A stretch of 33,422 nucleotides of DNA, taken from IMG/VR virus record IMGVR_UViG_3300038318_000399, one strand, 5' to 3'. Below, one piece after another: positions 617 through 26,135 of the stretch. Both the position numbers and the translations under genes were made by a program. The stretch's first letter is position 1, and the number at the start of each line of letters is the position of its first letter. The stretch is from a virus. Under the pieces are notes generated by a model. It saw only the letters and a list, made by a program, of their open reading frames with translations. It ran no database searches and was not told the DNA's origin.

Positions 617-976
617 ATGATGAGAAATGATGATGCGGTCTCGCCGGTCCTTATGAGCCCTAGAACCCTCCTTTTTTGCTTCCTGCTTCTCGCCGGACTC
701 CTGGCGGCCGACATCCTGACAACAGTGTGGTTCTGGTCCCTGGGGATGCCGGAGCTCAATCCCGCGATCGCCCCGATCGCCGGGGATCCTCTGGCGCAAA
801 TACAGTATAAGATCCCGTTCGTCGCGGCCCTGCTCGTCGGGGTCTTGGCGCTGTCGCGGGGATGTGAGTGCCTGCGGCCGGGGAGCGGTTGGGGTCCGTG
901 GGCCGTGGTGCTGCTGATGTTCGCGGTGCCCCCTATCTGGAATCTCGTGCATATCGCGGCACATCATTGGATGTGA
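617..976 (+). CDS. Membrane protein, DUF5658-like
   Basis: D-x-x-TT...G-x-x-E-x-NP pattern (ADILTTVWFWSLGMPELNP), 3-4 hydrophobic segments, GAGGTG RBS. Confidence 0.6.
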   Translation: MMRNDDAVSPVLMSPRTLLFCFLLLAGLLAADILTTVWFWSLGMPELNPAIAPIAGDPLAQIQYKIPFVAALLVGVLALSRGCECLRPGSGWGPWAVVLLMFAVPPIWNLVHIAAHHWM

Positions 977-1023
977 GCGCAGGCGTGGATACTTTAATCT
1001 TTTGATGCTGTCCTTTTTTGTAT

Positions 1024-1641
1024 ATGCGAATAACGGTGAATCTGGATGCTGCAGCAGTGAAATTGCTCGATGCATCGGCAGAAGCGCACCATGAGTCTCG
1101 GGCCGAGTTCGCCGGGATGCTCCTTGAATCTCAACTCACCTCTCAAAATAAGATCCACGACCAGTATATCCAGGAACTCAATCAGAGAGAGCAGATGATC
1201 AAGCGCCTGACCAGTGAGATGCAGGATCTTCGCCAGCTGCTGGACGAGGCCCGGGGCGAGGCCCGGAAACTGAACGCCACCACTGAAGAGGGGGTTGGGG
1301 TGATCATCGACCGGAGGGATATGAGAATTGATGATCTTTCTGCAACGGTCGCCCGGGTGGAGAGTGCTCTCGGCCAGGCACCTGCGGCAGGTGATGTTGA
1401 TCGGCTCCAAAATGATGTGACTGATCTGCGCGCCCAGGTGCAGGCCCGGGATGTACAGGTCGCCCGGCTGGCGGACCTGGAGCGGGAACTGTCCCGGGCA
1501 GGGGAGCGGGAGCGGGAGTTGCTTGATCTGATTTATCAGGAGAAGGGGGAAAAGAAGGCGTTGTTGGAGCGGTTGCCCCCGGCCGAGGTGCCGAAGAAAG
1601 GGATCTGGGAGAGGCTGCTCGGGGGCGAGAGAGGGGATTGA
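1024..1641 (+). CDS. RHH-like N-terminus plus long coiled-coil protein (plasmid/virus type)
   Basis: MRITVNLD...RAEFAGMLLE RHH-like pattern; heptad-rich middle; C-terminal KKGIWERLLG. Confidence 0.7.
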   Translation: MRITVNLDAAAVKLLDASAEAHHESRAEFAGMLLESQLTSQNKIHDQYIQELNQREQMIKRLTSEMQDLRQLLDEARGEARKLNATTEEGVGVIIDRRDMRIDDLSATVARVESALGQAPAAGDVDRLQNDVTDLRAQVQARDVQVARLADLERELSRAGERERELLDLIYQEKGEKKALLERLPPAEVPKKGIWERLLGGERGD

Positions 1642-1955
1642 GCGTACAGTAGTACTGGTAATTTCTCATTACTCTGTTTTACTTTCGCGGTGCGTGTGGA
1701 TTAGTCTGGTAAATTACTCACTGTTCACATCAGGATAGGTGTGAGGTGTGGTATGGAGGACCACCAAACAGCGTCGAACAACACCCGGACCTCCCATACC
1801 ACCCCCTAAATTACACTCACTTTTGATAAAATGTTGTGGTTTTGATCTGTTTTTGGGTGCTTCGATAGCGGTTTTTAGGTGCGGCACCTCAAAAAAGTTC
1901 ACACAACTTTGAGTAATAGTAATAATTGATATTATTTTAGTTATCAAAACTAATT

Positions 1956-2170
1956 AAAACTGATATCTATCTATCTATCTATCACCTACCTAAAACCCCT
2001 ATACGTTCTCTGATTCTCAGTGGATTATAATTCGTGTAGGTTTTTTATATATATATTATTACTTTAATACCTCTACAACCGAGCACTAGTCACGCAAAAA
2101 CAAGCACCGTCACGCAAAAAAGCATGGGAGTGCTAACCCTATGATAGATAGATAGATAGATATCAGTTTT
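1956..2170. repeat. 29-bp perfect inverted repeat with (GATA)n tract flanking an AT-rich core with iteron-like repeats; candidate origin
   Basis: aaaactgatatctatctatctatctatca at 1956-1984 and its reverse complement at 2142-2170; gtcacgcaaaaa at 2089 and 2109; (TA)n at about 2046-2056. Confidence 0.75.
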
Positions 2171-2609
2171 ATGTACTTTCGCTCTCATTCGTGTTACCAA
2201 CCTCAAACATCTTTTCCCTCAAAAACACATGGATCTGCTCTTCAGATGCCCTTTTCTGTAAAAATTCCTTCAAAAACCGTGAAAAAGCAGGCACCAAATA
2301 CCTTACATTCTGTCCATCTTGAAAAGACCCCAATAATTCATTTTTCAGTGCAGCAGCGTATGCGTTAAAGGTTATCTCGAAGTCAGAGGGTGTTGCATAG
2401 TCTAACTCTTCCATCGGGTCGGTCTGCAACCTCTTCGAGTATGCTTCTGATTGCAGCTGGTGACGCTTCATATCCTCAGCTACCAACCACCGGAGATAGG
2501 CACCTCTCCCATACGCTGATTGATCATCAATATACTCTAACTGAGCTGGTGGAAATCCCACGAGGACTCGCACCAATAATTGATCTGTCCGTTTACGAAT
2601 AGCCATCAA
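2169..2609 (-). CDS. Putative RHH-type regulator, divergent from early operon
   Basis: 146 aa; VRVLVGFPPAQLEYID...RGAYLRWLV resembles RHH. Confidence 0.55.
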   Translation of the reverse strand: MMAIRKRTDQLLVRVLVGFPPAQLEYIDDQSAYGRGAYLRWLVAEDMKRHQLQSEAYSKRLQTDPMEELDYATPSDFEITFNAYAAALKNELLGSFQDGQNVRYLVPAFSRFLKEFLQKRASEEQIHVFLREKMFEVGNTNESEST

Positions 2610-2847
2610 ACACGCTCCTTTGTTTTTTATGCGGCCTGGAACCGCTTTACTTTAGAAACTCATCGAGGTCTGAGGACTTAACCCGCCAATAGCGACCAAC
2701 CTTAACCCCTTTTAGCTTACCACTCCGTAACCACTTGTAAATCACATCCTTCGTTACTTTAAGTATCTGCGCCACCTCTAACGGTGTATACAGAGTCTCA
2801 TTCATAAGGGATTGTTTGGGAGTATATTATTTAAATGTATTTAATTG

Positions 2848-2895
2848 GTTCCAAATGGAACGAAACAGAGCCAAATGGAAATTATTTTATATGAT
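2848..2895 (+). promoter_or_regulatory. Early promoter/operator
   Basis: Palindrome GTTCCAAATGGAAC (2848-2861); CCAAATGGAA repeated 20 bp apart (2851, 2871); TTTTATA box about 2885-2891. Confidence 0.5.
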
Positions 2896-2971
2896 ATTAT
2901 CATACGTAGAGAGTAGAGCACAAAAGCGGGATAGGGGTTCCAGGCCCCTCCCGCGGAGCGTGTGATGTAAA

Positions 2972-3100
2972 ATGTCGAACAACACCACTGATACAGTGGC
3001 TAAAACTAGTGGGTTATCCTACTATTTTAGCCTGTTGCCTCAAAACGAGGCTCAGAATAGACCGCAGAACGAAGACGCGATCCGGGGGATCAGCGTATGA
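2972..3100 (+). CDS. Small hypothetical protein (42 aa)
   Basis: Hand translation; ATGA overlap with next gene. Confidence 0.35.
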   Translation: MSNNTTDTVAKTSGLSYYFSLLPQNEAQNRPQNEDAIRGISV

Positions 3101-3276
3101 GCAGGATCTACCTCTGCCCCGTCTGCAAGCGCCCGCTGCGGAAAATCCGCACCGAGGAAAACGCCTTCTTCACTGAAGAGGTCTGGAACTGCTCCGCCTG
3201 CCGGAAGAACTACTATAAGCGGCGGAACACCTGGATCGGGGCACAACCGATCCTCGCAGACGAGGCGTCCCAATGA
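3097..3276 (+). CDS. Zn-ribbon protein (59 aa)
   Basis: MSRIYLCPVCK...WNCSACRK; ATGA-coupled on both sides; not in ORF track. Confidence 0.7.
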   Translation: MSRIYLCPVCKRPLRKIRTEENAFFTEEVWNCSACRKNYYKRRNTWIGAQPILADEASQ

Positions 3277-3566
3277 TCTCCCTCCCCCCTCCACAACCCT
3301 CTCAGGTCCGCGCGGCCTCCCGGTCCTTCCGGGCGGCGGTGCGACGCCTCCACACCCCGCGACCGGCCGGGATGGTCCTGACCGGATCCGTGCTCCCTCT
3401 CCCCGTCACAATCGAGACCCAGATCACCGACGAGCGGATCGGGGACGAACCATACTGTTACTATCGCCTATCCTCCTCCGGCGACCCGCGCTGGATCTGG
3501 GGCCCGGACCTCCTCAAAGGCAACTCGCAGATCCTCGTCTACCGGCTGCAGGGGGCGAGGTCATGA
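3273..3566 (+). CDS. Hypothetical protein (97 aa)
   Basis: ATGA-coupled operon gene. Confidence 0.6.
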   Translation: MISLPPPQPSQVRAASRSFRAAVRRLHTPRPAGMVLTGSVLPLPVTIETQITDERIGDEPYCYYRLSSSGDPRWIWGPDLLKGNSQILVYRLQGARS

Positions 3567-3697
3567 GCGGCCGCCCCCGGAACCCGACCGACAAACTTCT
3601 CACCCGACTCACCCAGACCCCCCAGGGCCGGGAGCGACTCCGCGAGGCAGTCCAGAATATGAAGCGGCGCGAACAGTTCGAGGCGGCGCAACGATGA
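3563..3697 (+). CDS. Small hypothetical protein (44 aa)
   Basis: Hand translation MSGRPRNPTDK...; ATGA coupling. Confidence 0.5.
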   Translation: MSGRPRNPTDKLLTRLTQTPQGRERLREAVQNMKRREQFEAAQR

Positions 3698-3864
3698 GCA
3701 GCAAGACCGGCGGCCTATTCTCCGGCCTGCGCCGCGCCTCGACTGTCCACCACCTCCCCGGGTGCCCGAACGGCTGCGGGGAAATGCTCGCCCTGGATGA
3801 CGGCTGGCAGTGCCCGGTGTGCAACTGGTATCGCGGATACTACAGGGGGGAGCGGCACCCATGA
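3694..3864 (+). CDS. Zn-ribbon protein (56 aa), paralog of 26870-27034
   Basis: LRRASTVHHLPGCPNGCGEML...CPVC vs LKRAPTVVYLPECRYGCGEML...CPIC. Confidence 0.7.
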   Translation: MSSKTGGLFSGLRRASTVHHLPGCPNGCGEMLALDDGWQCPVCNWYRGYYRGERHP

Positions 3865-4181
3865 GCGGCTTATCTCAATCAGTATGGGCGCACGAGGACC
3901 ACCTGCTCGCGATCTATCGCCGCACAGGCGATACCTCGTTCACTTACAAAGAGATCGCAGACCTCATCCCGTGCGGCACAATGCTCCGCTACACTGTTCC
4001 AGGCATATTCATCCCCGCCCGGGACTCCAAAGGCATCCCGCTCAAAGGTGGGTCCCGGGCGCGCTCTAACGTCTGGCGCTGGCACCCCCGCGCCGCCGAG
4101 CTGTGCCGCCAGGCAATCGAGCGTGATCACCGGTGGGAAAACCTCGCAAACGGACTCACAGGGGGGCAGGAATATGCATGA
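3861..4181 (+). CDS. Putative wHTH DNA-binding protein
   Basis: SFTYKEIADLI helix-turn-helix-like segment; ATGA coupling. Confidence 0.55.
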   Translation: MSGLSQSVWAHEDHLLAIYRRTGDTSFTYKEIADLIPCGTMLRYTVPGIFIPARDSKGIPLKGGSRARSNVWRWHPRAAELCRQAIERDHRWENLANGLTGGQEYA

Positions 4182-4374
4182 GGATCACCGGGCACCCCTC
4201 CTCCTCACAACCGGGCGCTGGATCTGCTCAAAATGCCTCCAGCGGATCCCCACTGGATCCAACTCCTGCCCACAATGTGGCGGGCAATCATTTCGGCCAG
4301 AGTACAACCCAGCAGCCCTCGCAGAAGCCGACCGGCGAGCAGCCGCCAGGGGATCACGTCATGACCTGGGATGA
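4174..4374 (+). CDS. Zn-ribbon protein (66 aa)
   Basis: WICSKC...CPQCG. Confidence 0.6.
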   Translation: MHEDHRAPLLLTTGRWICSKCLQRIPTGSNSCPQCGGQSFRPEYNPAALAEADRRAAARGSRHDLG

Positions 4375-4722
4375 ACTCGAAGAACTCCAGGACCGGCTCA
4401 CCACGATCCTCGAGTACGAGCGCGCCGAGGAGGGGTTCTCCCCATCGAGGAGGATTATTATATCCAGTATCGGCAGGCAGCCCGGCGAGCCGTCAACGAC
4501 ATCAACCCAGACCACTCCCGCGACCGGGACCGCTACCAAACCCTCCAGGCAATTTACGATACCGTAGGAGAGATTTACGAGATCAGGAGTGCAAAACTCC
4601 GCATGGTCGTTCAGGACCGCGTGGTGTTCCGGCGCGCCGGGGAGCGGCCCGAGAACCTGACCGAGGAAGAGCGGGTCCGGTACGACATGGCGATCTCGCT
4701 CGGGGGGCACAATGCTGAATAA
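4361..4722 (+). pseudogene. GINS (Gins51/Gins15 A-domain)-like protein interrupted by a -1 frameshift
   Basis: Joined frames read TILEYERAEEGFS/PIEEDYY...IYEIRSAKL...PENLTEEERVRY; break in C-run at about 4440-4443. Confidence 0.6.
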
Positions 4723-4969
4723 CGCCCTGCAGACCATCGGCTTGCTCGGTGGTATCGCCGGGGCGGTCCTGGTGGCTGGCCCCACTCCCCGACAGCGGGC
4801 CGCCGGGTTCACTACCTGGATCGCCGGAAACGGTGCCTGGGTTGCGTTCGCAGCGTTGACCGGCTCGCTCTATCTCGGAGTGCAGTTCGGCATATTCCTG
4901 CTGCTCTCTATGGCGGGACTGAGAACGAATCTGAAAGAATTGAGAGTATCGAATTTGGGTGAAAAATGA
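4712..4969 (+). CDS. Small 3-TM membrane protein
   Basis: 85 aa, three hydrophobic stretches. Confidence 0.7.
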   Translation: MLNNALQTIGLLGGIAGAVLVAGPTPRQRAAGFTTWIAGNGAWVAFAALTGSLYLGVQFGIFLLLSMAGLRTNLKELRVSNLGEK

Positions 4970-5082
4970 AGATCAACACAGATTATGTACGCGGGATGAA
5001 GCAGAAGGAGAATGAGAAGATCCGGCGCATCCTCGACCGCGAAGGGGTCAACGCAGGCAGGGGTGATCACGATGGATCCTAA
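4966..5082 (+). CDS. Small basic hypothetical protein (38 aa)
   Basis: Hand translation; ATGA coupling. Confidence 0.4.
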   Translation: MKINTDYVRGMKQKENEKIRRILDREGVNAGRGDHDGS

Positions 5083-5428
5083 ACCGTTCAACATCCACAA
5101 CCCCTCCGACGTTGACCGCTGGTTCACGGAGATGAGGGGCTACCTGCGGGCCTGCGACTTCGTGAACCTGGGCACAGACCGTAGTGGAAGGAAGTACGCT
5201 CTGGAGTGCTTCAATTCCCTTCAGAAGATGCTGGTCTTTGACCGCGTCTCTCGGAAGTGCCCGTTCTGTGGCGGGACGGCGGATCACGCAGAAACGGCGG
5301 TCACCCCCGGCAAAGACGTGACCGTTGCCTATCTCTGCCGGTCCTGCGGCCGTCATGTCCTTGAGATCCACGACTACTCCTCCTCTGAGAGCGAAGATCG
5401 AACCGTAGAGGAAACCGGTGAGGCGTAA
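5072..5428 (+). CDS. Protein with C-terminal Zn ribbon
   Basis: KCPFCGG...LCRSCG; GGGGTGA RBS; ends TVEETGEA over a junction-motif variant. Confidence 0.7.
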   Translation: MDPKPFNIHNPSDVDRWFTEMRGYLRACDFVNLGTDRSGRKYALECFNSLQKMLVFDRVSRKCPFCGGTADHAETAVTPGKDVTVAYLCRSCGRHVLEIHDYSSSESEDRTVEETGEA

Positions 5429-5430
5429 GG

Positions 5431-5634
5431 ATGTTCAAATGTTGTATCTGTCAAAAAGAGATTCACTCGGAAGAAGTGCCTCCGGGGTGGAAACAGGTGA
5501 TCTACACCGATGGAGACGGTTTCGGGTACTGCCCGGATCATCCTCTGGTAGAGGTGCTGAACGACATCATTTGCCGAGCGGACACTGAAATCGGGCTGTG
5601 GTGCGAGATAGACGAAGTGCTAGGATCATGGTAG
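5431..5634 (+). CDS. Cys-rich cassette protein (67 aa)
   Basis: CCIC...YCPDH; ends TGG TAG in junction motif. Confidence 0.7.
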   Translation: MFKCCICQKEIHSEEVPPGWKQVIYTDGDGFGYCPDHPLVEVLNDIICRADTEIGLWCEIDEVLGSW

Positions 5635-5648
5635 AGGAGTGAAATACG

Positions 5649-5816
5649 ATGCCAAACTGCACGACAAGAGGATGCAATCGCCCGGCGACCTGGGAGATAG
5701 AGATCCGCCGGGCCGGAGCAGATTACGATCTGCTGTACGCCTGTGACGAGCATTGCCCGGATCCGGCGATCCTGTCGCCGCAGGACGAGATGCGCAGACT
5801 GGTAGAGGAACGATAG
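5649..5816 (+). CDS. Cys-rich cassette protein (55 aa), paralog of 25952-26116
   Basis: MPNCTTRGCNRPATWEIEI...ACDEHCPDPAILSP; hand translation. Confidence 0.8.
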   Translation: MPNCTTRGCNRPATWEIEIRRAGADYDLLYACDEHCPDPAILSPQDEMRRLVEER

Positions 5817-5817
5817 C

Positions 5818-6009
5818 ATGGGAAACGACTGTTGGTATTATCGGGCTCAATACGCAGGCATGACGAAGGTCTGTATGCGTCAGAGCATTGTGGAGTGTGG
5901 TCGGATCAGGCGGTTCGGCCTCTGTCCAATACCACCGGACTCGGAAGCCTGGCGGCGGTGCGGGTTTGCCATCGGGCAGCATGAGATCCCGCTCATGGTA
6001 GAGGTGTGA
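5818..6009 (+). CDS. Cassette protein (63 aa), paralog of 25038-25229
   Basis: MGNDCWYYRAQYAGMTKVCMR identical N-terminus. Confidence 0.8.
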   Translation: MGNDCWYYRAQYAGMTKVCMRQSIVECGRIRRFGLCPIPPDSEAWRRCGFAIGQHEIPLMVEV

Positions 6010-6012
6010 AAG

Positions 6013-6201
6013 ATGATATTCACCGACGAGGAAGTTGAAAATATCAACAGGTATCAGCAATCCGGCAAATTCCACCCGCTAACCTGCGGGAACGGTCACG
6101 GAGACCTCATAGCAACAAATGATGGATTGATCTGCCCTGAGTGCGATTACCGGCAGACCTGGGTACATGGCTGGATTAAAAGCGGGGAATGTCCCTGGTA
6201 G
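6013..6201 (+). CDS. Zn-ribbon cassette protein (62 aa)
   Basis: HPLTCGN...LICPECDY; ends TGG TAG. Confidence 0.7.
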   Translation: MIFTDEEVENINRYQQSGKFHPLTCGNGHGDLIATNDGLICPECDYRQTWVHGWIKSGECPW

Positions 6202-6216
6202 AAAAGAGGTAGATCA

Positions 6217-6747
6217 ATGCTGATGCTGGATCTGTGCTGTGGCCTGGGGGGGGCGTCTAAGGCGATGAGGGAGAGGGGGTGGGACGTTATCACAGTCGAT
6301 ATCGTCCCGGAGTTCAACCCCTCTATCGTTGCCGACCTGCGGACGTTCCACTACTCCGGCCCCTGCCCTGATCTGGTGTGGGCGTCCCCGCCCTGCCAGG
6401 AGTTCTCCCGGTATTCGTTGCCCGAGAGTTGGGCCTGTAACCGGGGAGGGAAAACAGAACCAGACCTCTCCCTGATGCTGGCAGCAAAGAGGATTATCGA
6501 TGAGGTAAACCCGCGATGGTGGGTAATCGAGAATGTCCGGGGTGCGGTCCCGTTCTTCGAGCCGCACCTCGGCCCGGTACGGAAGCGGAGCGGGAGCCGG
6601 TATCTGTGGGGAGAGTTCCCCCCGTTCGACTGCGAGCCGGGATATGGGAAGTGGAGACTACCCCCGACAGCAGACAGGGCAGCCAAGCGATCCGTAATCC
6701 CGAAACAACTATCGACGGCGCTCTGCCGGTCGATTGAATCATGGTAG
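6217..6747 (+). CDS. dcm: Short C5-cytosine DNA methyltransferase
   Basis: Motif I LDLCCGLGG, motif IV ASPPCQEFS, motif VI IENVRG. Confidence 0.85.
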   Translation: MLMLDLCCGLGGASKAMRERGWDVITVDIVPEFNPSIVADLRTFHYSGPCPDLVWASPPCQEFSRYSLPESWACNRGGKTEPDLSLMLAAKRIIDEVNPRWWVIENVRGAVPFFEPHLGPVRKRSGSRYLWGEFPPFDCEPGYGKWRLPPTADRAAKRSVIPKQLSTALCRSIESW

Positions 6748-6760
6748 AGGAGTGAAAGAA

Positions 6761-7060
6761 ATGTTTAAGTGGCTGAAATTTGGAGCGGTTAGCCGCATGA
6801 TCCTGAAATACAGGATCACCGATGAGGCGGAGTATCGTAAAGATAGCGGGCTTTTGCAGACCGCGAACGTCCTGTTAGGGATGGCGATCACGGGCCTCGG
6901 TTTTGCCGTGTCATATGGGTTCTTCTGTCCCGCCATTCTGATTCACACCGAGGATCTCATTGTATCGGCATGGGTCTGCACGTTTGCTTTTATCGGGTTG
7001 GCTGGAGTGCAGGTATTACGGTTCGTCCGGCGGCTCCCGGTCGAGATGGTAGAGGAGTAG
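6761..7060 (+). CDS. 2-TM cassette protein
   Basis: Two hydrophobic segments; ends MVEE in junction motif. Confidence 0.7.
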   Translation: MFKWLKFGAVSRMILKYRITDEAEYRKDSGLLQTANVLLGMAITGLGFAVSYGFFCPAILIHTEDLIVSAWVCTFAFIGLAGVQVLRFVRRLPVEMVEE

Positions 7061-7063
7061 AAG

Positions 7064-7222
7064 ATGAACCTGATAGAGATCATCCGGGATCCGGTCGTGG
7101 ACTGCCCTGAAACCGGCGAGACCGTGCTCTTATGTGAGTGCGAGAGATGCCAACATTTCTACGGCTACAACACCGGCGAGACGAAGATCGGCTGCACCTA
7201 TCACTCTTCCCCCGAGGACTGA
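7064..7222 (+). CDS. Cys-rich cassette protein (52 aa)
   Basis: MNLIEIIRDPVVDCP...CECERC...GC; hand translation. Confidence 0.65.
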   Translation: MNLIEIIRDPVVDCPETGETVLLCECERCQHFYGYNTGETKIGCTYHSSPED

Positions 7223-7590: not shown

Positions 7591-8154
7591 TCAAACAACC
7601 TCCCTCTCCTTCGCACTCTCCGCAAGCTCCGACTTTGACGGCGTAGTGTAATGCTCCTGGATCGTCCGGAGCGTGTCCCCGATGATCTCCGCGACCTCCT
7701 CCGGCCGCCACCCGGCCGCCTGCATAAACTTGATCGCCGTCGCCCGGAGCGCGTGGAACGGCCTCTCCTCGATACCGGCGATCTGGCAGACCTTTTGAAA
7801 GCGGTTGTATGCCTGCCGGTCTTTGAACGAGAACACTGTCTTCTGTGCCTTCGGCTGCGTGTTCCGCAGGATCATAAGCTCTTGTGCGAGCTTCGGTCCG
7901 ATCGGGACCGCCCGTAGCCGGTTGCCCTTCTTCTTCTCCTGGTAAGTGACGGTCGCGCTCTCCGGATCCCGGATATCAATGTTCGCCCACTCGAGCCGGA
8001 CGATATCGGAGCGCCGTAGGCCGAGGGTGCAGCCGACCATGATGAGCACCCGATCCTCTAGGTTCTGGCAGGCGGCCAGGGCTTTGTCGTACTCTTTCCG
8101 GGTCAGGGCGTATTCGCCGGTTCGGTAGGGGGCGGCTTTGTTGTGCGGTTTCAC
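7591..8154 (-). CDS. int: Minimal tyrosine recombinase/integrase (catalytic domain only)
   Basis: LGLRRSDI (R), FHALR (HxxR), IIGD...QEHY (Tyr); GTG start after GGGGAG. Confidence 0.9.
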   Translation of the reverse strand: MKPHNKAAPYRTGEYALTRKEYDKALAACQNLEDRVLIMVGCTLGLRRSDIVRLEWANIDIRDPESATVTYQEKKKGNRLRAVPIGPKLAQELMILRNTQPKAQKTVFSFKDRQAYNRFQKVCQIAGIEERPFHALRATAIKFMQAAGWRPEEVAEIIGDTLRTIQEHYTTPSKSELAESAKEREVV

Positions 8155-8167
8155 TCTGTTCTCCCCT

Positions 8168-8575
8168 CTACTCCGCACAGAAGGCCCCTAAGTCGGCCTG
8201 CCGCTGTTCTGCTTTTGCGCCGGCCGCTTTCCGGGCTCGCCGCTCCTGGTCGGTCGGATAGAGGATCAGCTTCCCCGTCTCGGAGTTAAACCAGACACTC
8301 CCATTTGACCCGCTCGCCATGTCGTCGCCATCCGGACTGGCGGACCGGGTGATCGCACCCCGGATCTCTTCGGCGTCGATGATCATCCACCAGCCGCAGC
8401 CGGTGCAGTCGAAGTGCCGGAGCGGGTGACGTTCGCCGGATTGGGACTGTGAGATGTGCCCGTCACAAATTGGGCAGCGGTCGAATACAAACGGAATGTC
8501 CCGGGCTCGGGATACCGCTACAGAGAGCTCACTGAGAGCCCTGGCGATTGTTTCAGAGTTTCTTCTTCTTGCCAT
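8168..8575 (-). CDS. Zn-finger protein upstream of integrase
   Basis: CPICDG...CTGCGW. Confidence 0.7.
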   Translation of the reverse strand: MARRRNSETIARALSELSVAVSRARDIPFVFDRCPICDGHISQSQSGERHPLRHFDCTGCGWWMIIDAEEIRGAITRSASPDGDDMASGSNGSVWFNSETGKLILYPTDQERRARKAAGAKAEQRQADLGAFCAE

Positions 8576-10130: not shown

Positions 10131-10160
10131 AATCACCACTCCCGCCCGGGGCGGGGAAAT

Positions 10161-10210
10161 GCGGCCCCGGGCTTCGAACCCGGGCGGGGCCTGGCTACCC
10201 TCGCCGCTCA
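10161..10210 (-). repeat. 50-bp tRNA-like repeat, copy 1
   Basis: TGAGCGGCGAGGGTAGCCAGGCCCCGCCCGGGTTCGAAGCCCGGGGCCGC; T-arm-like hairpin. Confidence 0.8.
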
Positions 10211-10377: not shown

Positions 10378-10432
10378 TCTCTCTCACCTCACAGTTAGCC
10401 CCGAAGGGCAATTCCTAACGGATTTTCTGAAA

Positions 10433-10482
10433 GCGGTCCCGGGCCTCGAACCCGGGCGGGGCCTGGCTACCCTCGCCGCTCA
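10433..10482 (-). repeat. 50-bp tRNA-like repeat, copy 2
   Basis: 2 mismatches vs copy 1; immediately follows stop of 10484-10906. Confidence 0.8.
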
Positions 10483-10483
10483 C

Positions 10484-10906
10484 TCAGTCCAAAACATCCA
10501 CGCGCACCGGGCGATCCCAGTCGCACGCATCGCCCTCGTCCTGCACGTAGGGATCGTACTCCTTGCGCTCGACCCAGTAGACTTGAGCAGACCGCCCGGT
10601 CTCGATCTCCGTTGCAGAGGCCGCGTATGCGTCCTCCAGGAAGTGGCCATCTGGGAATTCGATCCGGCCCACACAGTAAGCCTGCTGTGTGAGACCGTAG
10701 GTCCGCCCCCCGAACTCGACCCACCCCTCCTCATACTCCTGCGCAGCGTCATACTCAGACAAGACCTGCTCGCTGGTGTGCTGGAGCAGGTCCGCGTTCT
10801 CCCGCTCGTCCTCATCGAGGAGGGCGATCCGGTGTTCGTAAATTCGGTTCAGGGTTGCGAGGTCGTACGCGGAGTACCCCTCTGTGTTTTCGGTCGTGTA
10901 CTGCAT
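10484..10906 (-). CDS. Acidic hypothetical protein (140 aa)
   Basis: Own promoter copy; very D/E rich. Confidence 0.75.
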   Translation of the reverse strand: MQYTTENTEGYSAYDLATLNRIYEHRIALLDEDERENADLLQHTSEQVLSEYDAAQEYEEGWVEFGGRTYGLTQQAYCVGRIEFPDGHFLEDAYAASATEIETGRSAQVYWVERKEYDPYVQDEGDACDWDRPVRVDVLD

Positions 10907-10950
10907 GATCTTTCCTCTACTACATACTATGTATGCAAACTATAAATAAG
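10904..10950 (-). promoter_or_regulatory. Duplicated promoter/leader with operator, copy 1
   Basis: 34 bp identical to 11992-12025; TACATA-N-TATGTA palindrome; TTTATA box upstream. Confidence 0.75.
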
Positions 10951-10953
10951 TTT

Positions 10954-11781
10954 CTATTGTTGCGCTCCCTGCAGGATCCCCCGGAGCGCAACACTGTATC
11001 TCTCTCCCCGGTAGCTTTGCCAGCATCCATTTGAGGGGGACCAGCGGAACCCGGCCCGCTTGAGCGCGGCCCGGACCTCATCGGAGGGCTTGCCTGGGAA
11101 AAACGCTTGTAGCCGGTTATCCTCTACACTGTCCACGACCCGCACCTCTCCGACCTGCTGCTCTGCGGTCTCGTCCGCTGCGGCCCGCTCCAGGGTAACG
11201 ATCCGCTGCTTGAGTCTCCGGATCTCCGCGTTAGAGTTGGTCAGCGCGTACCCCGGGACCCCGACCCGGCCCCCAAAGTCAGGGACGAAAAACTTACGGG
11301 AGAGCTCCTCAGAGAACCCGGCCGCGATGAGGTCCCGGATTTTCTCGTCCTCGCTGTACCCCTTCCTCCGGGAGAGAACAATTTTGTTCGCCCGGACCAT
11401 CTGCTCGTGGAGGTTCTCCAGGTTGGTGAGTTTCTCCCGCAGTTTCCGCACCGCATCGGGATCGTCAGAGCTGATCGCGTGGCCGTTCTCCAGCCGATCC
11501 GCTTTCTCCTCATAGTACTGTGCGGTCTTGTCGAGCTCGAACCCCTTAGAGTATGTACTCTGGATCCGGCTGCGATAGTTGCGATCGCGCTGCTCGGAGT
11601 GGTGGCCCACCAGGATCGGCTGTCCCAGGGGGATCGCGTCGGCCATCGACCGCGCCCGGTCGAGGGTGGCCGCAGCCTCCCCGCGCTTCTGGTCTGCAAT
11701 CTCCCGGTACTTCTCGATCTTGGCCGATTTGCGGGCCTCGTAGGAGTTCTCAAAAGTTGTTTGCACCGTCTCCATTCTCAC
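10954..11781 (-). CDS. DUF3560-family protein
   Basis: IPLGQPILVGHHSE signature; C-terminal FFPGKPSDEVRAALKRAGFRWSPSNGCWQ. Confidence 0.85.
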   Translation of the reverse strand: MRMETVQTTFENSYEARKSAKIEKYREIADQKRGEAAATLDRARSMADAIPLGQPILVGHHSEQRDRNYRSRIQSTYSKGFELDKTAQYYEEKADRLENGHAISSDDPDAVRKLREKLTNLENLHEQMVRANKIVLSRRKGYSEDEKIRDLIAAGFSEELSRKFFVPDFGGRVGVPGYALTNSNAEIRRLKQRIVTLERAAADETAEQQVGEVRVVDSVEDNRLQAFFPGKPSDEVRAALKRAGFRWSPSNGCWQSYRGERYSVALRGILQGAQQ

Positions 11782-11994
11782 TCACTCCGTGGCCCCGCAG
11801 GGGGTTGTTTGGTAGTTCCGGATCTCCGGATTGTACCACTTGTGTTCTACCTTCACGATCCGGCGATCCGCATCAGTCACCACAGTTTTAAGCACCCGGG
11901 GGTACCCGCGGAGCTGCTCCGCGGATTTGAAGAACACGATCTCTCCTCCATGCTTTGACTCAGCTGTTGAGTAGTTGATCCAAGTTTCGGTCAT
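11782..11994 (-). CDS. Hypothetical protein (70 aa)
   Basis: First gene after promoter copy 2. Confidence 0.7.
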   Translation of the reverse strand: MTETWINYSTAESKHGGEIVFFKSAEQLRGYPRVLKTVVTDADRRIVKVEHKWYNPEIRNYQTTPCGATE

Positions 11995-12040
11995 GATCTT
12001 TCCTCTACTACATACTATGTATGCATAGTATTTATTACTT
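11992..12040 (-). promoter_or_regulatory. Duplicated promoter/leader with operator, copy 2
   Basis: catgatctttcctctactacatactatgtatgca identical to 10904-10937; AT-rich TATA-like region upstream. Confidence 0.75.
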
Positions 12041-12306
12041 TCTGTTATGTTCCCCCCGGCCCCCTACATGGTACCTCCCCGGCCCCGGGCTCGCGAACCA
12101 CTCCCCCGCACACTCCCGGCCCCCGGTCGGGGAGCAGGGAGATACTTTTATCTCCATCGGGACCCCACTATCAGACTAGAGCGGCCGAGTGGCCCGGCGA
12201 GGTGCACGAATGGGAAAGCAGAAGGTCAGCGGCCACCTGCGGAGCGTCCCCGGACGGAAACAGAAGGTCCGGGTGAAACCCTACGAACGAAAGGTAAGGA
12301 AGTAAC

Positions 12307-21076: not shown

Positions 21077-23688
21077 TGATATCCCTCCTCCCGGTATCGG
21101 GTGACGATGACACCCACCACCCCGAGGGTGCTGACGAGACCAAGTGAGACTGGAGCGATGAGGCCGAGATCGTCGAGCCAGCCGAAGGCGTAGAAGAGCC
21201 AGCCGGCGAGGGCGATCACGACCACGCCCCGGGTGGCGCTGGTCGCGCCGAAGATGCCGCCGAGGAGCATGAGGCCGAACCCGGCGACGTAGATATACAG
21301 GCCGTCCGGGAGCGGGCCGAGCGGGACCCTAACACCTTTGAACGCGGCGGCGTAGTCTCTGTGGACGGTGCCGAAGTCAGGGTGCTCGGCTTCGAGCCGG
21401 ACGAAGAACGATTGACCTTTGTAGACGGAGAGGTCGAAGGTGTGGGTGACGTTGGCGTCGTTCGCTACGGTGTGCGAGGCGATGACTTCTTCCGGTGCCG
21501 AGGAGTCGGTGGTGTTCTGCTGCGTGACCTGGATACTGAGGCCCGTGGTTTTGCGGGTGGTGTCGTTGTAGTCGATATGGATGTGGCCGGTGTCGGCTTC
21601 AGTGCTGGTGGTGACGTTGATGTGGATGTCTCGGAGAGCGTCCCCGGCGTCAGGGAGGAGGGGGCCGCCGGCAGTGGAGATAATGATCGGGTAGGTGTCT
21701 TCTTTGGGGTAGATTTCGAGGGTTTGGTTGACGACATCGGGTTTATAGAGCGTGATTTGGTATTTGACGACCTCCACCAGCATGAAGTTGATCTCCCCGT
21801 TGGTGTCGGTGGTGCCGCTCATGAGCTCGCTGTTGATCGGGGTCGAGGTCATGTTGATGCCGAGCAGCCGCTCGATGATGTTGGTGGAGGGGGTTTGCTG
21901 GATCCCCTGGGCGGTGACGTTGACGCCGGGGATGGGGGTGCCGAGGAGGGTTTGCACGGTGAATTTGACGTTGTGCGGGGGATAGTTGGGCATCTCCGGC
22001 GGGGTTGGTGTGGGGGCGATGGCTGTCATCAGGACGGTGGCGGTAGTGGTGCCGGGCTTGTCGAGGTACGCGGATTGCGTCTGGGGGTAGTAGCCGCCAG
22101 CGGCCGCGGTGATGGTGTAGGGGCCGTAGTCGACGTTGAACGTCGCGGGGTTCTGGGTGCTCTCCTGGCCGTCGCTGAGGGAGATTGTGGTGTTGTGGAG
22201 GGTCGTGAGGTCGTCGGCGTCCTTGGCGGAGACGGTGAGGAGGAAATGCCCTTTGAGTGCGAGGTTGTGTTGGGTGGCGGTGGCGTCCACAGTGACGGAC
22301 TCGCTGAGGGCGTCGTGGAGGGAGGCGGAGGCGGAGAGAGTAAGGGTGCCGGGCGTGACGTTGTTGAAGAGATAGAATCCTGTTGATGACGTGGTTGTGC
22401 TGCCGTAGCCGTCGAGAGAGATGGTGGCGCCGCTGATCGGCTGCTGGCTGCCCTGGGTCTGGATGTAGCCGTAGAGCATGGATTTTTCGGGCTCGGTGGG
22501 GACGTCGGGCGGGGCGTCGGGGGCCATCCAGAGGATGATGGTCGTGCCGCCCTCCGGGACGCCGAAGAGGATCGGGGAGAGGAGCGTGTATCCCGGTGCC
22601 GTGGCGGTGGCGTGGTACTTAAGGTAGTCCGCTTTTTCCAGGCTGTAGGTGCCGGTGCCGCCGGGGAGGGTGGCGTTGACGACCTCGGTTTCGGTCCCGC
22701 CGGCGGCCGCGAGGATTGAGAGGTGGGCGTCGGCGAGGAGGGCGCCGGTTTGGGAGTTTTGGACGTAGACGGTGGCGGGGGCGTTGTCGGGGAGGGTGCC
22801 GGAGTCTGAACCGTAAACAGTTGTATTGTACCAGCGACCCATTACAGGTGACCAGATATTGACGATGTAAGGTCTGTGGGATTGAGGGAGTGATAACGAT
22901 ATATCCTCAATGCCGGAGGTGTCCGAGTACGGTACGGTTTTACCCTCCCCGATAATGATTACCCGGCTCGGATAGTGGTCGTCGCCAACCGATCGCAGGA
23001 CAGATAGATGGTCGGTATCGACCATCGGCGTAGATTGAATCTGGTGCCGAAACTCTACTATCTCGTTATAGGTCTGATAGCCCCGATAACCTATGAATTT
23101 CTCTCCCCCTGTTCGGTCACCCAAACTGACCGCCGGCAATCCAGCCTCATTTTTGCTGTAACGCCCATTGAAATAATGTATGCCGTTAACATTTGTCCTA
23201 TTGTAGTTTAAGCTAATTTGTACAGCACCGGTTTTGCCCGTAAACACATCATTGTCCCAATTATCAATAGCCAGCCACACGTACGTATTTTGACCGTCCG
23301 GGTCGTACTGATATCCAATGTCCCCAGTCCCGACCGTGACACTGCCGTAAGTTAGTGTCACCGACGTACTAGCGCTGAAAATCGTTGGGTCGTCACGAAT
23401 AAACGTATTATGATATTCCGGGTCAACCCAATGTATTATCGCCGTGGGGGTCCCGATGGTCTCAATCTGTTTAATCGAAATCGTATAAAAGTAAGCAGAG
23501 CCCCCCGTGTAAGAAGTGGCGTCAATATACGTATTATCACTCAAAATCTCATGGTCGTCGATGTCTTTTATAAAAATATCAGATGCCGTGACGGTAGAGA
23601 CTGGTAACAGCAATATAATTGCTATCGCTGCGAGGATGAAACGGCTAGTCGATGCCGGCCGAGGGGATTTGGGGCGGTTCGCGGGCAC
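21073..23688 (-). CDS. Large membrane-anchored surface/spike (adhesin) protein
   Basis: 871 aa; signal peptide, low-GC N-terminal domain, repeated beta-sandwich (carboxypeptidase-regulatory/PEGA-like) segments, many N-x-S/T, 3 C-terminal TM. Confidence 0.8.
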   Translation of the reverse strand: MPANRPKSPRPASTSRFILAAIAIILLLPVSTVTASDIFIKDIDDHEILSDNTYIDATSYTGGSAYFYTISIKQIETIGTPTAIIHWVDPEYHNTFIRDDPTIFSASTSVTLTYGSVTVGTGDIGYQYDPDGQNTYVWLAIDNWDNDVFTGKTGAVQISLNYNRTNVNGIHYFNGRYSKNEAGLPAVSLGDRTGGEKFIGYRGYQTYNEIVEFRHQIQSTPMVDTDHLSVLRSVGDDHYPSRVIIIGEGKTVPYSDTSGIEDISLSLPQSHRPYIVNIWSPVMGRWYNTTVYGSDSGTLPDNAPATVYVQNSQTGALLADAHLSILAAAGGTETEVVNATLPGGTGTYSLEKADYLKYHATATAPGYTLLSPILFGVPEGGTTIILWMAPDAPPDVPTEPEKSMLYGYIQTQGSQQPISGATISLDGYGSTTTSSTGFYLFNNVTPGTLTLSASASLHDALSESVTVDATATQHNLALKGHFLLTVSAKDADDLTTLHNTTISLSDGQESTQNPATFNVDYGPYTITAAAGGYYPQTQSAYLDKPGTTTATVLMTAIAPTPTPPEMPNYPPHNVKFTVQTLLGTPIPGVNVTAQGIQQTPSTNIIERLLGINMTSTPINSELMSGTTDTNGEINFMLVEVVKYQITLYKPDVVNQTLEIYPKEDTYPIIISTAGGPLLPDAGDALRDIHINVTTSTEADTGHIHIDYNDTTRKTTGLSIQVTQQNTTDSSAPEEVIASHTVANDANVTHTFDLSVYKGQSFFVRLEAEHPDFGTVHRDYAAAFKGVRVPLGPLPDGLYIYVAGFGLMLLGGIFGATSATRGVVVIALAGWLFYAFGWLDDLGLIAPVSLGLVSTLGVVGVIVTRYREEGYQ

Positions 23689-23700
23689 GCTAGCGCCTCC
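23624..23700. repeat. 77-bp exact direct repeat, copy 2
   Basis: Identical to 1-77. Confidence 0.97.
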
Positions 23701-24055
23701 GGGCGATCACGAGCAGGCAGAAAAGAAGCAAGCCGACTATGATCGCGTTTTGGGTGAGCCAGGCGATGATGGCATCGAGCAGCGATACGGGATCCTGATT
23801 GGTCGCGGACGGCTGGAGCTGCACGGTGTAAAACGCCGATTCGGATGAGTTGAGCTCCACGCTGGATGTGGTGTTCGCGGTCGCGATGAGGGCGCCGGCG
23901 TCGTCGAACAGTTTGATGTCCTGTTGCATCAGCCCGAGGGACTGAAAGTTTACGGTGATATCAGCAGCAGAAACGCCGGCACAGCAGATACAGCAGAAGA
24001 GGAGCAGCACCGCGACGAGCCGGGATGCAGGGTTATTGGGGGGGGTCCACCTCAT
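23690..24055 (-). CDS. Secreted, C-terminally anchored protein (121 aa)
   Basis: Signal peptide, NTT/NSS sequons, C-terminal TM plus RRR. Confidence 0.75.
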   Translation of the reverse strand: MRWTPPNNPASRLVAVLLLFCCICCAGVSAADITVNFQSLGLMQQDIKLFDDAGALIATANTTSSVELNSSESAFYTVQLQPSATNQDPVSLLDAIIAWLTQNAIIVGLLLFCLLVIARRR

Positions 24056-24710: not shown

Positions 24711-24839
24711 CTATCGGAAAGGGGTTAGCCATATACCCCAAGTGCCTAAGTCGTGCTGCGCTCCCGGCCACGGTTGCCCGCTCAGGTTGTTAAGGTAGTT
24801 GCATACGTGTATGTGGTCGCAATAATCACAGGCTGCCAT
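24711..24839 (-). CDS. Terminal cassette protein (42 aa)
   Basis: MAACDYCDHIHVC...; follows junction motif, T-rich tract downstream. Confidence 0.5.
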   Translation of the reverse strand: MAACDYCDHIHVCNYLNNLSGQPWPGAQHDLGTWGIWLTPFR

Positions 24840-24841
24840 CT

Positions 24842-25033
24842 CTATCGCTCCTCTACCATTTCCGCCCGCAGAAGTTCCAGGGATGCAAACGCTTTCCCGA
24901 GCGTGGCGCGAGCCAAGTAGAACCCATCATCACAGTCATGATCCTCCAGGCGGTCGATCAGCGGTGCGACCAGATGGAGTCCCGCCTCGATGTTCTCGTA
25001 GAGCCGGGCCTTGTTTGCGGTTACGTTTTCCAT
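24842..25033 (-). CDS. Cassette protein (63 aa)
   Basis: AGGTGA RBS; ends MVEER in motif. Confidence 0.7.
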   Translation of the reverse strand: MENVTANKARLYENIEAGLHLVAPLIDRLEDHDCDDGFYLARATLGKAFASLELLRAEMVEER

Positions 25034-25037
25034 GTTG

Positions 25038-25229
25038 TCACCTACGCACAGCCTGTGCCGTCTCGACCTGCCCGATCGCAAAGCCGCAGCGCCGCCATGC
25101 CTCCGAGTCCGGCGGGATAGCGCAGAGGCCGAACCGCACGATTCGGCCCCGCTCAACGGTGCTCTCCCGCATGCAGACCTTTGTCATGCCTGCGTATTGA
25201 GCCCGGTAGTACCAACAGTCGTTTCCCAT
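25038..25229 (-). CDS. Cassette protein, paralog of 5818-6009
   Basis: Near-identical protein. Confidence 0.8.
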   Translation of the reverse strand: MGNDCWYYRAQYAGMTKVCMRESTVERGRIVRFGLCAIPPDSEAWRRCGFAIGQVETAQAVRR

Positions 25230-25230
25230 G

Positions 25231-25395
25231 CTATCGTTCCTCTACCACATGAGCCCGGATAGCCAGCGGCCGCAGATCCGGCGAGCAGTCATATGACTGG
25301 TGGACGAACGCGGCCTCTTCGGTCCTAAACCGGCGGTCGCAGACCCGGCACCGGAACCCGGCCCGGGTCTCGATGATCTTCTGTTTGACCTTCAT
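25231..25395 (-). CDS. C2H2-like Zn-finger cassette protein (54 aa)
   Basis: FRCRVCDRRFRTEEAAFVHQSYDC; ends VVEER. Confidence 0.7.
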   Translation of the reverse strand: MKVKQKIIETRAGFRCRVCDRRFRTEEAAFVHQSYDCSPDLRPLAIRAHVVEER

Positions 25396-25397
25396 AC

Positions 25398-25766
25398 CTA
25401 CTCCTTTACTATGTGGACGTTCATCAACTTCGACTTCAGCAGGTGTTTCAGCACCCGGCGGGCGTATTTCCGGTCGGCCTCTTTCTGATCGTCCGGCAGT
25501 CTCGAGTACGACACCCACAACTTCTTCCACCGTGCCAGCCGCTCCGGGGAGATGTTCTCCACCTCGGCAATGGCCTTCGACCACTCGACCCATTGTAGGT
25601 GCTCGAACCGGGCGATCTCCTCGATCAGCTCCTCGTACGAGTTGATCAGCCCTTCCGGGCAGCGGTCCATGTGCCCCGCGACCTTCCCGAAGACCGTGCA
25701 TTGAGACTTCCACGGGAAGAACTTGGGGCACCGGATTTCATCGCAGATTTTTACAGAGGGTTTCAT
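25398..25766 (-). CDS. Cys-rich N-terminus plus RyR-like domain cassette protein
   Basis: ARFEHLQW...W...Y..LP..QKEADR pattern of phage RyR-repeat proteins. Confidence 0.65.
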   Translation of the reverse strand: MKPSVKICDEIRCPKFFPWKSQCTVFGKVAGHMDRCPEGLINSYEELIEEIARFEHLQWVEWSKAIAEVENISPERLARWKKLWVSYSRLPDDQKEADRKYARRVLKHLLKSKLMNVHIVKE

Positions 25767-25948
25767 TTTTCTACCACATGAGACTGGATACAATCCAGAA
25801 CTTCCTTCGTCCTGCCGACGAACGCAAGAAGCGGCAGAATCGGGAGGAGAGATTCTAACATCGCTTCAATAGGTCGCTTGATGTGCCGATCATACTCGTA
25901 CTGCCGCCCCTGGAGAGAACCGGGGAGGTGCAGGTCTATTGGATTCAT
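25763..25948 (-). CDS. Cassette protein (61 aa)
   Basis: Between two junction motifs; ends VVEK. Confidence 0.65.
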   Translation of the reverse strand: MNPIDLHLPGSLQGRQYEYDRHIKRPIEAMLESLLPILPLLAFVGRTKEVLDCIQSHVVEK

Positions 25949-25951
25949 CTT

Positions 25952-26116
25952 CTACTCCTCTACCACCCTTCGGATCTCATCGTACGGCGACAGAATCGCC
26001 GGGTCCGGGCAATGCTTGTCGCAGGCGTAGTACAGATCGCTCGACGTCCCCTCTCGGCGGATCTCGATCTCCCAAGTCGCCAGCTGGCGGCATCCTCTCG
26101 TTGTGCATTTTGGCAT
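25952..26116 (-). CDS. Cys-rich cassette protein (54 aa), paralog of 5649-5816
   Basis: MPKCTTRGCRQLATWEIEI...ACDKHCPDPAILSP...VVEE. Confidence 0.8.
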   Translation of the reverse strand: MPKCTTRGCRQLATWEIEIRREGTSSDLYYACDKHCPDPAILSPYDEIRRVVEE

Positions 26117-26135
26117 CGTGTTTCTACCAAATCCG

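Follow-up and report, generated by a model that had tools for sequence, protein, structure and literature searches.

The virus record IMGVR_UViG_3300038318_000399 of IMG/VR, a stretch of 33,422 nt that we call the window and to whose full length all coordinates refer unless a locus is named, contains two arrays of very small genes: array A on the + strand of its left-hand part (element A) and array B on the − strand of its right-hand part (element B). The junctions of both arrays carry the same seven bases, TGGTAGA, hereafter the word. Why should one short word recur between small genes? It could belong to the translation signals of the host, it could be a regulatory site, or it could mark the places where genes are gained and lost, as a first, sequence-only reading had proposed. 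The answer touches on an old question of viral mosaicism, in which homologous exchange at conserved linkers is set against random illegitimate joins followed by selection. From the comparison of related sequences, we consider it probable that TGGTAGA and the purine-rich Shine-Dalgarno (SD) linker behind it form a universal junction adaptor between the accessory cassettes of Methanoculleus viruses, and that these cassettes are exchanged at the word. The host is very probably Methanoculleus, because the MGNDCW cassette of array A is 90% identical to a gene (25132-25336) of Blf4, a cultured virus of M. bourgensis.

The word TGGTAGA at gene junctions

The window holds 14 exact copies of TGGTAGA where 2.14 are expected, a count that none of 100 dinucleotide shuffles reached (the largest had 6). 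Eleven of them sit at the junctions of small genes, six on the + strand in array A (5629, 5800, 5996, 6196, 6742, 7047) and five on the − strand in array B (26129, 25965, 25776, 25247, 24858), every one where the sequence-only reading had located it. On the coding strand, 10-24 nt lead from the first base (T1) of each junction copy to the ATG of a small open reading frame (ORF). These 11 copies fall within the 31-nt zones upstream of the 66 called starts, which make up 3% of strand positions (binomial P = 7e-15 for the placement), so that the observation of the motif at small-gene junctions is borne out. The three non-junctional copies lie at 5546 (in frame within a 67-aa gene), 18037 and 24206, and the word is absent before the structural genes of the window. 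It had also been proposed that the motif stops the upstream reading frames; this is correct for the proteins ending in GSW*, CPW* and ESW*, where TAG is in frame, and, in the other frame, for those ending in VEE*, VEER*, VEV* and VEK*. It is incorrect for the − strand copy at 26129, which stops nothing, the upstream ORF already ending 6 nt before the word.

Using two cassette genes shared by the arrays (MPxCTTRGC and MGNDCW) as bait, we fetched 95 related loci, to which the genome of Blf4 was added; dereplication of the 95 left 84 non-redundant loci (300 kb in total), in which ORF calls are heuristic. The relatives were recovered from metagenomes of digesters, bioreactors and fermentations, in many independent samples. 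Most loci are short-read metagenome contigs, and Blf4 (MZ171369.1, L101) is a finished isolate genome. When IMG/VR was searched with a 17-nt junction pattern, the true relatives found were L001 and L100, alongside three chance matches at 35% GC. Two short array-bearing contigs (L014 and L015, G001) had been binned in a 'Bacteroidales' metagenome-assembled genome with a bacterial 16S rRNA, and are probably mis-binned viral DNA.

On the coding strand of the 84 loci, TGGTAGA is the commonest 7-mer, with 406 copies (some 84 of which belong to a bait gene that itself ends in TGGTAGA); the other strand has 7, and composition predicts 17.7. All 21 of its one-mismatch variants are at background, and occasional decayed copies are present. 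The word stands before 342 of the 887 called + strand starts. Its consensus continuation is RRA, then an SD-like GGAG or GGTGA, then ATG: in 72% of junctions TGGTAG runs directly into AGGAG, and in 23% AA and a distinct SD come after the word, which then lies about 25-36 nt from the ATG. Upstream of the word, positions -20 to -1 carry less than 0.35 bit each. Across orthologous junctions the word has diverged by 2.6%, the linker by 5.3% and the downstream codons by 10-14% (third positions 14%).

The upstream ORF reads the word in frame 2 (nTG GTA GAx) in 70% of junctions, with a stop 11-14 nt further on, in frame 0 (TGG TAG) in 23% and in the third frame in 7%. A frame-2 stop is nevertheless found in the linker of 80-94% of junctions, even where the upstream ORF is in frame 0, compared with 24% of shuffled linkers. 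Each such unit thus closes two reading frames before providing an SD and a start. The array is followed by the next TATA-like promoter, and the junctions are stop/ribosome-binding linkers of 10-36 nt inside one transcription unit. We considered cleavage of the RNA at the word and rejected it by reasoning, because the upstream stop comes after the word in 70% of junctions and cleavage would leave a non-stop mRNA.

Could the motif be merely an extended SD that matches the 3' end of the host 16S rRNA? The direct succession of TGGTAG and AGGAG in most junctions is in keeping with such a site, and pairing would be longer if the mature 16S rRNA had six extra 3' bases, yet we find this explanation scarcely credible. 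The non-array genes of the window and the motif-less starts of the loci have GGAGG or GGTGA without TGGTAG, and the word is missing before the genes that precede array A in the same operon. In Blf4, a plain SD (GGAGG) with variable 5' neighbours is found at 52 of 63 genes, and TGGTAGA occurs twice on the coding strand and six times on the other. Moreover, the word is detached from the SD in almost a quarter of junctions, and wobble-compatible variants are not tolerated. The sequence-only reading had itself named complementarity to the anti-SD as a challenge to its proposal; the Blf4 and non-array data led us to reject extended anti-SD pairing, which is largely refuted and would need a M. bourgensis 16S 3' end of the form ...CCUCCUCUACCA. 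Judged from the ribosome-binding sites of the viral genes, the word is not an ordinary SD site, nor is it the general ribosome-binding site of the host. That the word might pair with a ...CUACCA 3' end, like that of the archaeal initiator tRNA, is a purely speculative alternative.

Blf4 is informative in a second respect. At a site where its relatives carry one to eight cassettes it has a single one, which ends in the word. Upstream of its MGNDCW gene (~25060-25150) lies an unannotated 28-codon ORF that ends in a decayed form of the word (TGGTAGC), with the usual linker behind it. The MGNDCW gene and its linker persist while the 5' word has decayed, and this one case suggests that the word may be dispensable for expression.

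Exchange of cassettes at the word

The 942 + strand ORFs of the loci fall into 372 families, which different loci carry in different orders. The MPxC and MGNDCW genes, for example, are seen in both orders and with zero to three genes between them; array B of the window has three ORFs there, as the sequence-only reading had described. Backbone genes, which lack the motif, keep their order across loci. The linker tracks the downstream family and not the upstream one: linkers are identical in 15.7% of pairs that share the downstream family and in 2.3% of those that share the upstream family, compared with 1.0% of all pairs. The earlier claim that the sequence behind the motif follows the downstream gene agrees with this and holds in the window, where the two arrays have the same 22 nt in front of the MGNDCW gene.

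Breakpoints give a more direct view. That gene gain and loss in relatives would map to the motif was a test set beforehand, and in the 95 loci and Blf4 they do. In anchored pairs with the same downstream gene and different upstream genes, identity is random up to position -1 and about 96% from +7; pairs with the same upstream gene and different downstream genes have the opposite profile. The switch point is therefore the 7-mer itself (positions 0-6). Among high-scoring segment pairs of at least 90% identity, 288 of 1055 internal 5' ends lie exactly at T1, and 3' ends cluster from A7, the end of the word, to +13. Homology breakpoints were found at 64% of motif junctions and 15% of motif-less junctions, a difference that is partly a contrast of regions, as motif-less junctions lie mostly in conserved backbones, and that supports the proposed crossover at a stop/ribosome-binding adaptor. 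Blocks of at least 98.5% identity have 68 of their 106 5' ends and 69 of their 93 3' ends at the word. Among such blocks with two internal ends, 40 of 68 run from word to word, with a median of 211 nt, about one gene.

Individual loci display the same boundaries. L017 contains an exact duplication of 2845 bp (876-3720 and 3976-6820), a ten-gene block with one 255-bp cassette between the copies, both of which start at T1 and end one base after A7. We rejected a simple 3.1-kb circle as its explanation, the flanks not being periodic. The first cassette of array B (B1, MPKCTTRGC) recurs in L041, an element-A-like locus, with 100% identity over 169 nt, and in L035, a Blf4-like one, with 97.6% identity; outside the words, the flanks are unrelated. 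Cassettes with 97-100% identity are common to element-A-like, Blf4-like (RecT-encoding) and Rep-encoding backbones. Taken together, these alignments indicate that small accessory genes are exchanged at the word, including between unrelated viruses.

The same pattern might in principle arise by chance, by common descent of duplicated junctions, or from chimeras of metagenome assembly, a set of explanations to which we give almost no credence. Chance is excluded by the window count, by the strand counts in the 84 loci and by the placement statistics. Chimeras deserve a closer look, since most loci are short-read contigs and the window itself may join two viruses. It has an 83-bp direct repeat (1-83 = 23624-23705, 98.8% identity), and probably represents two different viral elements, or a circle plus another element, that meet at a gene start common to both. 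However, every assembly k-mer is longer than the word, so that reads must span each junction and the junctions cannot be assembly joins. The diversity of the samples and the word-ended cassette in the finished genome of Blf4 likewise speak against chimeras.

We propose that a cassette is made of linker, ORF and TGGTAGA. The word would close the upstream ORF in one frame (TGG TAG) and the linker would close a second, while also supplying the ribosome-binding site of the next gene. Because one and the same word, always in the same orientation, stands at both ends of every cassette, recombination between copies of this short sequence could shuffle cassettes, deleting, duplicating, permuting and exchanging them both inside one genome and among unrelated viruses that co-infect a cell, and every product would keep expressible genes. 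Exchange may proceed by short homology (RecT-type annealing, template switching or slippage) with no dedicated site-specific enzyme, and the 7-mer may be kept so strictly because cassettes with an intact word stay both exchangeable and expression-ready. We favour short-homology recombination because the word is surrounded by neither dyad symmetry nor arm-type conservation, because arrays occur with and without an adjacent integrase, and because Blf4-like loci encode a RecT-family single-strand annealing protein just downstream. This protein (family F14; L004:2142-2822, Pfam E = 1e-33) has homologues in other Blf4-like loci, its gene lying a few genes downstream of the cassette arrays.

Several points weigh against this proposal. 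Seven bases, or at most about 17 with the linker consensus, are a very short identity by the standards of known homologous recombination. Neither element of the window has RecT, and Pfam and PHROGs detected no single-strand annealing protein there. Baiting with cassette genes over-samples arrays in the locus set, and both the bait's own copies of the word and the regional share of the breakpoint contrast reduce the weight of the counts given above. Finally, TGGTAG is sharper than the neighbouring SD, which microhomology alone does not explain; such strictness suggests that a factor recognises the word, be it a regulator, as for start-associated sequences (SAS) or stoperators, or a recombination enzyme.

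On the regulatory side, the word could be primarily a cis-acting site in RNA or DNA, bound by a viral or host factor, with recombination incidental to the shared sequence. It would then resemble the SAS of mycobacteriophages, if it acts in translation, or the stoperators of cluster A, asymmetric repressor sites at gene junctions. We regard this as unlikely, although a very sharp 7-mer with its mismatch variants at background is as expected for specific recognition, and the strict co-orientation with transcription and the lower divergence of the word than of its flanks agree with it. So does its confinement to arrays of small non-structural genes, which is also described for SAS in the passages of PMC3203893 that were covered. 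Regulation alone, however, does not predict block boundaries at T1 and A7. The distance from word to start varies between 10 and 36 nt, wordless genes precede the array in the same operon, the Blf4 cassette gene persists behind a decayed word, and the three backbones have no candidate binding protein in common.

The other possibility is a site-specific system, the archaeal-virus counterpart of integron cassettes, in which the 7 bp would be the crossover core of a recombinase, for example of the tyrosine integrase encoded next to array A, or an insertion target of 7 bp that has been duplicated. Lambda-type tyrosine recombinases have an overlap region of 7 bp. The size of the word equals that overlap, the boundaries are precise to the single base, blocks of one gene have the word at either end, and an integrase gene adjoins the array in the window and in L011. 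In the window this gene for a tyrosine recombinase (7591-8178, − strand, Pfam Phage_integrase) is convergent with array A, at its distal end. Its product is short (195 aa), with generic Phage_integrase as the sole Pfam match, and its look-up in the ESM Atlas gave no pointer to the host. The arrays of the Blf4-like loci examined have no integrase in their vicinity, nor has the array in that part of element B which the window covers. The word also has no dyad-symmetric arms or hairpins, and the inverted repeats that were found lie inside genes. We therefore judge such a system distinctly improbable. In a broader form, the 7-mer would be the recognition or crossover site of a putative dedicated machinery (a recombinase or nickase, or a factor that pairs with the word) that actively excises and inserts single-gene cassettes and thereby keeps up a common pool of them for unrelated Methanoculleus viruses; this too is quite unlikely, but if true it would give archaeal viruses an integron counterpart built on a translational adaptor in place of attC. 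A Chi-like hotspot was rejected, as Chi spreads crossovers over kilobases and the word boundaries are exact to the base.

A single exact word at hundreds of junctions, with recent blocks of 98.5-100% identity ending on it, provides a countable signal of recombination in archaeal viruses. The shared cassettes circulate among a Blf4-like tailed lineage, a pleolipovirus-like element that encodes Rep and a third element with an integrase, all in one methanogen genus. Blf4 and M. bourgensis form a culturable pair that can serve as a test system for the word. The word is also a practical marker for accessory, probably anti-defence, genes in methanogen viromes, and may serve, as an existing stop/restart adaptor, to stack genes in Methanoculleus.

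Gene content of the two arrays and their surroundings

The first junction of array A is preceded by a 67-aa gene (5431-5634, + strand), which ends TGG TAG in the word at 5629. This gene contains the in-frame internal word at 5546-5552, and upstream of it only a degenerate relative of the word is seen (~5405-5415). Cassette A1 (5629-5816, + strand) consists of the word (5629-5635), an SD linker and the MPNCTTRGC gene (5649-5816), encoding a Cys-rich protein of 55 aa whose MPxCTTRGC family has 37 representatives. This protein is also found as the C-terminal domain of 112-121-aa proteins (L011:1030-1374, L057, L086 and others), with VCETC replacing MPxC; by their sequences, the two are free and fused forms of one cassette. 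In cassette A2 (5800-6009, + strand), the word at 5800-5806 precedes the MGNDCW gene (5818-6009, 63 aa), and the whole is about 97% identical to copies in Blf4-like loci.

The next two + strand cassettes of array A carry a zinc-ribbon gene (A3, 5996-6201; word 5996-6002, gene 6013-6201, 62 aa) and a short C5 DNA-methylase-like gene (A4, 6196-6747; word 6196-6202, gene 6217-6747, 176 aa). The linker of A4 is of class II, with AAA and then a separate SD behind the word. A gene for a putative membrane protein follows in A5 (6742-7060, + strand; word 6742-6748, gene 6761-7060, 99 aa). The last gene of the array, that of A6 (7047-7222, + strand; word 7047-7053, gene 7064-7222, 52 aa), has no word after it. 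Elsewhere in the loci, larger cargo includes a C5 DNA methylase (L082:1044-2468), an N4/N6 DNA methylase (L070:477-1085) and a PAPS-reductase-domain protein (L042:3748-4548); such annotations point to typical anti-restriction or accessory cargo.

Array B reads on the − strand throughout. Its cassette B1 (25952-26129) has an intergenic word (26123-26129) before the MPKCTTRGC gene (25952-26116); its linker (26117-26122) has lost 7 nt, including the SD, relative to the otherwise identical cassettes of L041 and L035. Cassette B2 (25763-25965) encodes a 61-aa protein (gene 25763-25948), and its word (25959-25965) and linker are identical to those at 7047. In B3 (25398-25776), the word (25770-25776) is followed directly by AAA and the ATG of a 122-aa gene (25398-25766). 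The 54-aa gene behind it (25231-25395) has upstream only a linker-like purine/SD stretch and no word, and ends VVEER* in the next word. That word (25241-25247) opens cassette B4 (25038-25247), whose MGNDCW paralogue (25038-25229) is 86% identical to 5800-5979.

A 63-aa gene (24842-25033, within 24842-25050, − strand) comes next and ends in the word at 24858. It is preceded by a minor second junction word, TGTGCGTAGGTGA (25038-25050, − strand), the TGTGCGTAG core of which occurs 15 times on the coding strand of the loci and once on the other strand. Cassette B5 (24711-24858; word 24852-24858, 42-aa gene 24711-24839) is the end of array B.

Beyond the arrays, the right-hand element encodes a Rep related to ORF1 of Halorubrum pleomorphic virus, and the left-hand element encodes, besides the integrase, a large protein with a CarboxypepD_reg domain. 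Three further repeats were seen in the window. A 55-nt repeat (87% identity) in front of two − strand genes, at 10904-10958 and 11992-12046, finishes with a relative of the word that has one mismatch, TAGTAGAGGAA, and an ATG; it is possibly a promoter and ribosome-binding module of another kind. A 53-nt direct repeat (94% identity) lies at gene ends (10158-10210 and 10430-10482), and a 38-nt inverted repeat lies in an AT-rich region (1947-1984 / 2142-2179). Scans of the window for tRNA genes and Rfam families found nothing.

Comparison with known systems

No description of a TGGTAGA junction word was found in the literature searched, where a search with the motif string gave only primer matches; neither the Blf4 paper nor the methanogen-virus paper PMC9796341 mentions the motif. 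The general idea does have an archaeal precedent, contrary to what the sequence-only reading had supposed: a junction motif like the promoter early stem-loop (PeSL) repeats of T4-type phages has already been proposed for the haloarchaeal virus HGTV-1 (PMC3950731).

Integrons resemble the arrays in having co-oriented, promoter-less single-gene cassettes with a repeat at each boundary, and in that the same cassette occurs in different arrays and an integrase gene sometimes adjoins one. They differ in the imperfect palindromes of attC: as had been stated from the start, attC hairpins are lacking, with no inverted repeats at the junctions of either array, and the reverse complement of the word is at background. 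Nor is there an attI/Pc arrangement, the window integrase lying at the distal end of array A and facing it. No IntI-type integrase was recognised, in analyses that included no search aimed at an IntI-specific domain, and beside the arrays of Blf4-like loci and of element B no integrase was found.

In lambdoid phages, short sequences shared at gene boundaries have reportedly been proposed as sites of homologous exchange that generate mosaics, the Susskind-Botstein model. The lambdoid cases are sporadic and heterogeneous, whereas TGGTAGA is one exact word at hundreds of junctions, in unrelated lineages of one archaeal host.

The PeSL repeats of T4-type phages lie between small non-essential genes of hyperplastic regions, where recombination shuffles, deletes and replaces genes; they are transcriptional units of several tens of bases, with an early promoter and a terminator hairpin (PMC2839356, PMC4122927). 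As with PeSL, insertions, deletions and replacements between the relatives compared here are bounded by the repeat. Unlike PeSL, the word has neither promoter nor hairpin and acts inside one operon, at the level of stop and ribosome-binding site, and its invariant core is only 7 nt.

The SAS of cluster K mycobacteriophages is a 13-bp sequence, GGGATAGGAGCCC, located 3-7 bp from the start and given as of unknown function in the passages of PMC3203893 that were covered. According to the same passages, the upstream stop sometimes lies within the repeat, conservation exceeds the pairing with 16S rRNA, and a role in translation initiation is proposed; they make no mention of recombination mapping (PMC3203893). 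TGGTAGA shares with SAS, so far as those passages describe it, the character of an asymmetric repeat with an SD core, in one orientation, before the starts of varied non-structural families, with AGGAG contained or abutting, and its absence from structural genes. The differences are as clear. SAS has its own sequence and a bacterial host, whereas the word belongs to archaeal viruses. SAS stands at a fixed 3-7 bp from the start, against 10-36 nt and, in about a quarter of cases, a separate SD for TGGTAGA, and half of the SAS sites have the inverted repeats of an extended SAS (ESAS), of which there are none at TGGTAGA junctions. Breakpoints, moreover, map to the TGGTAGA word. TGGTAGA is thus an analogue of SAS and not a member, and cluster K SAS and T4-type PeSL are its closest analogues.

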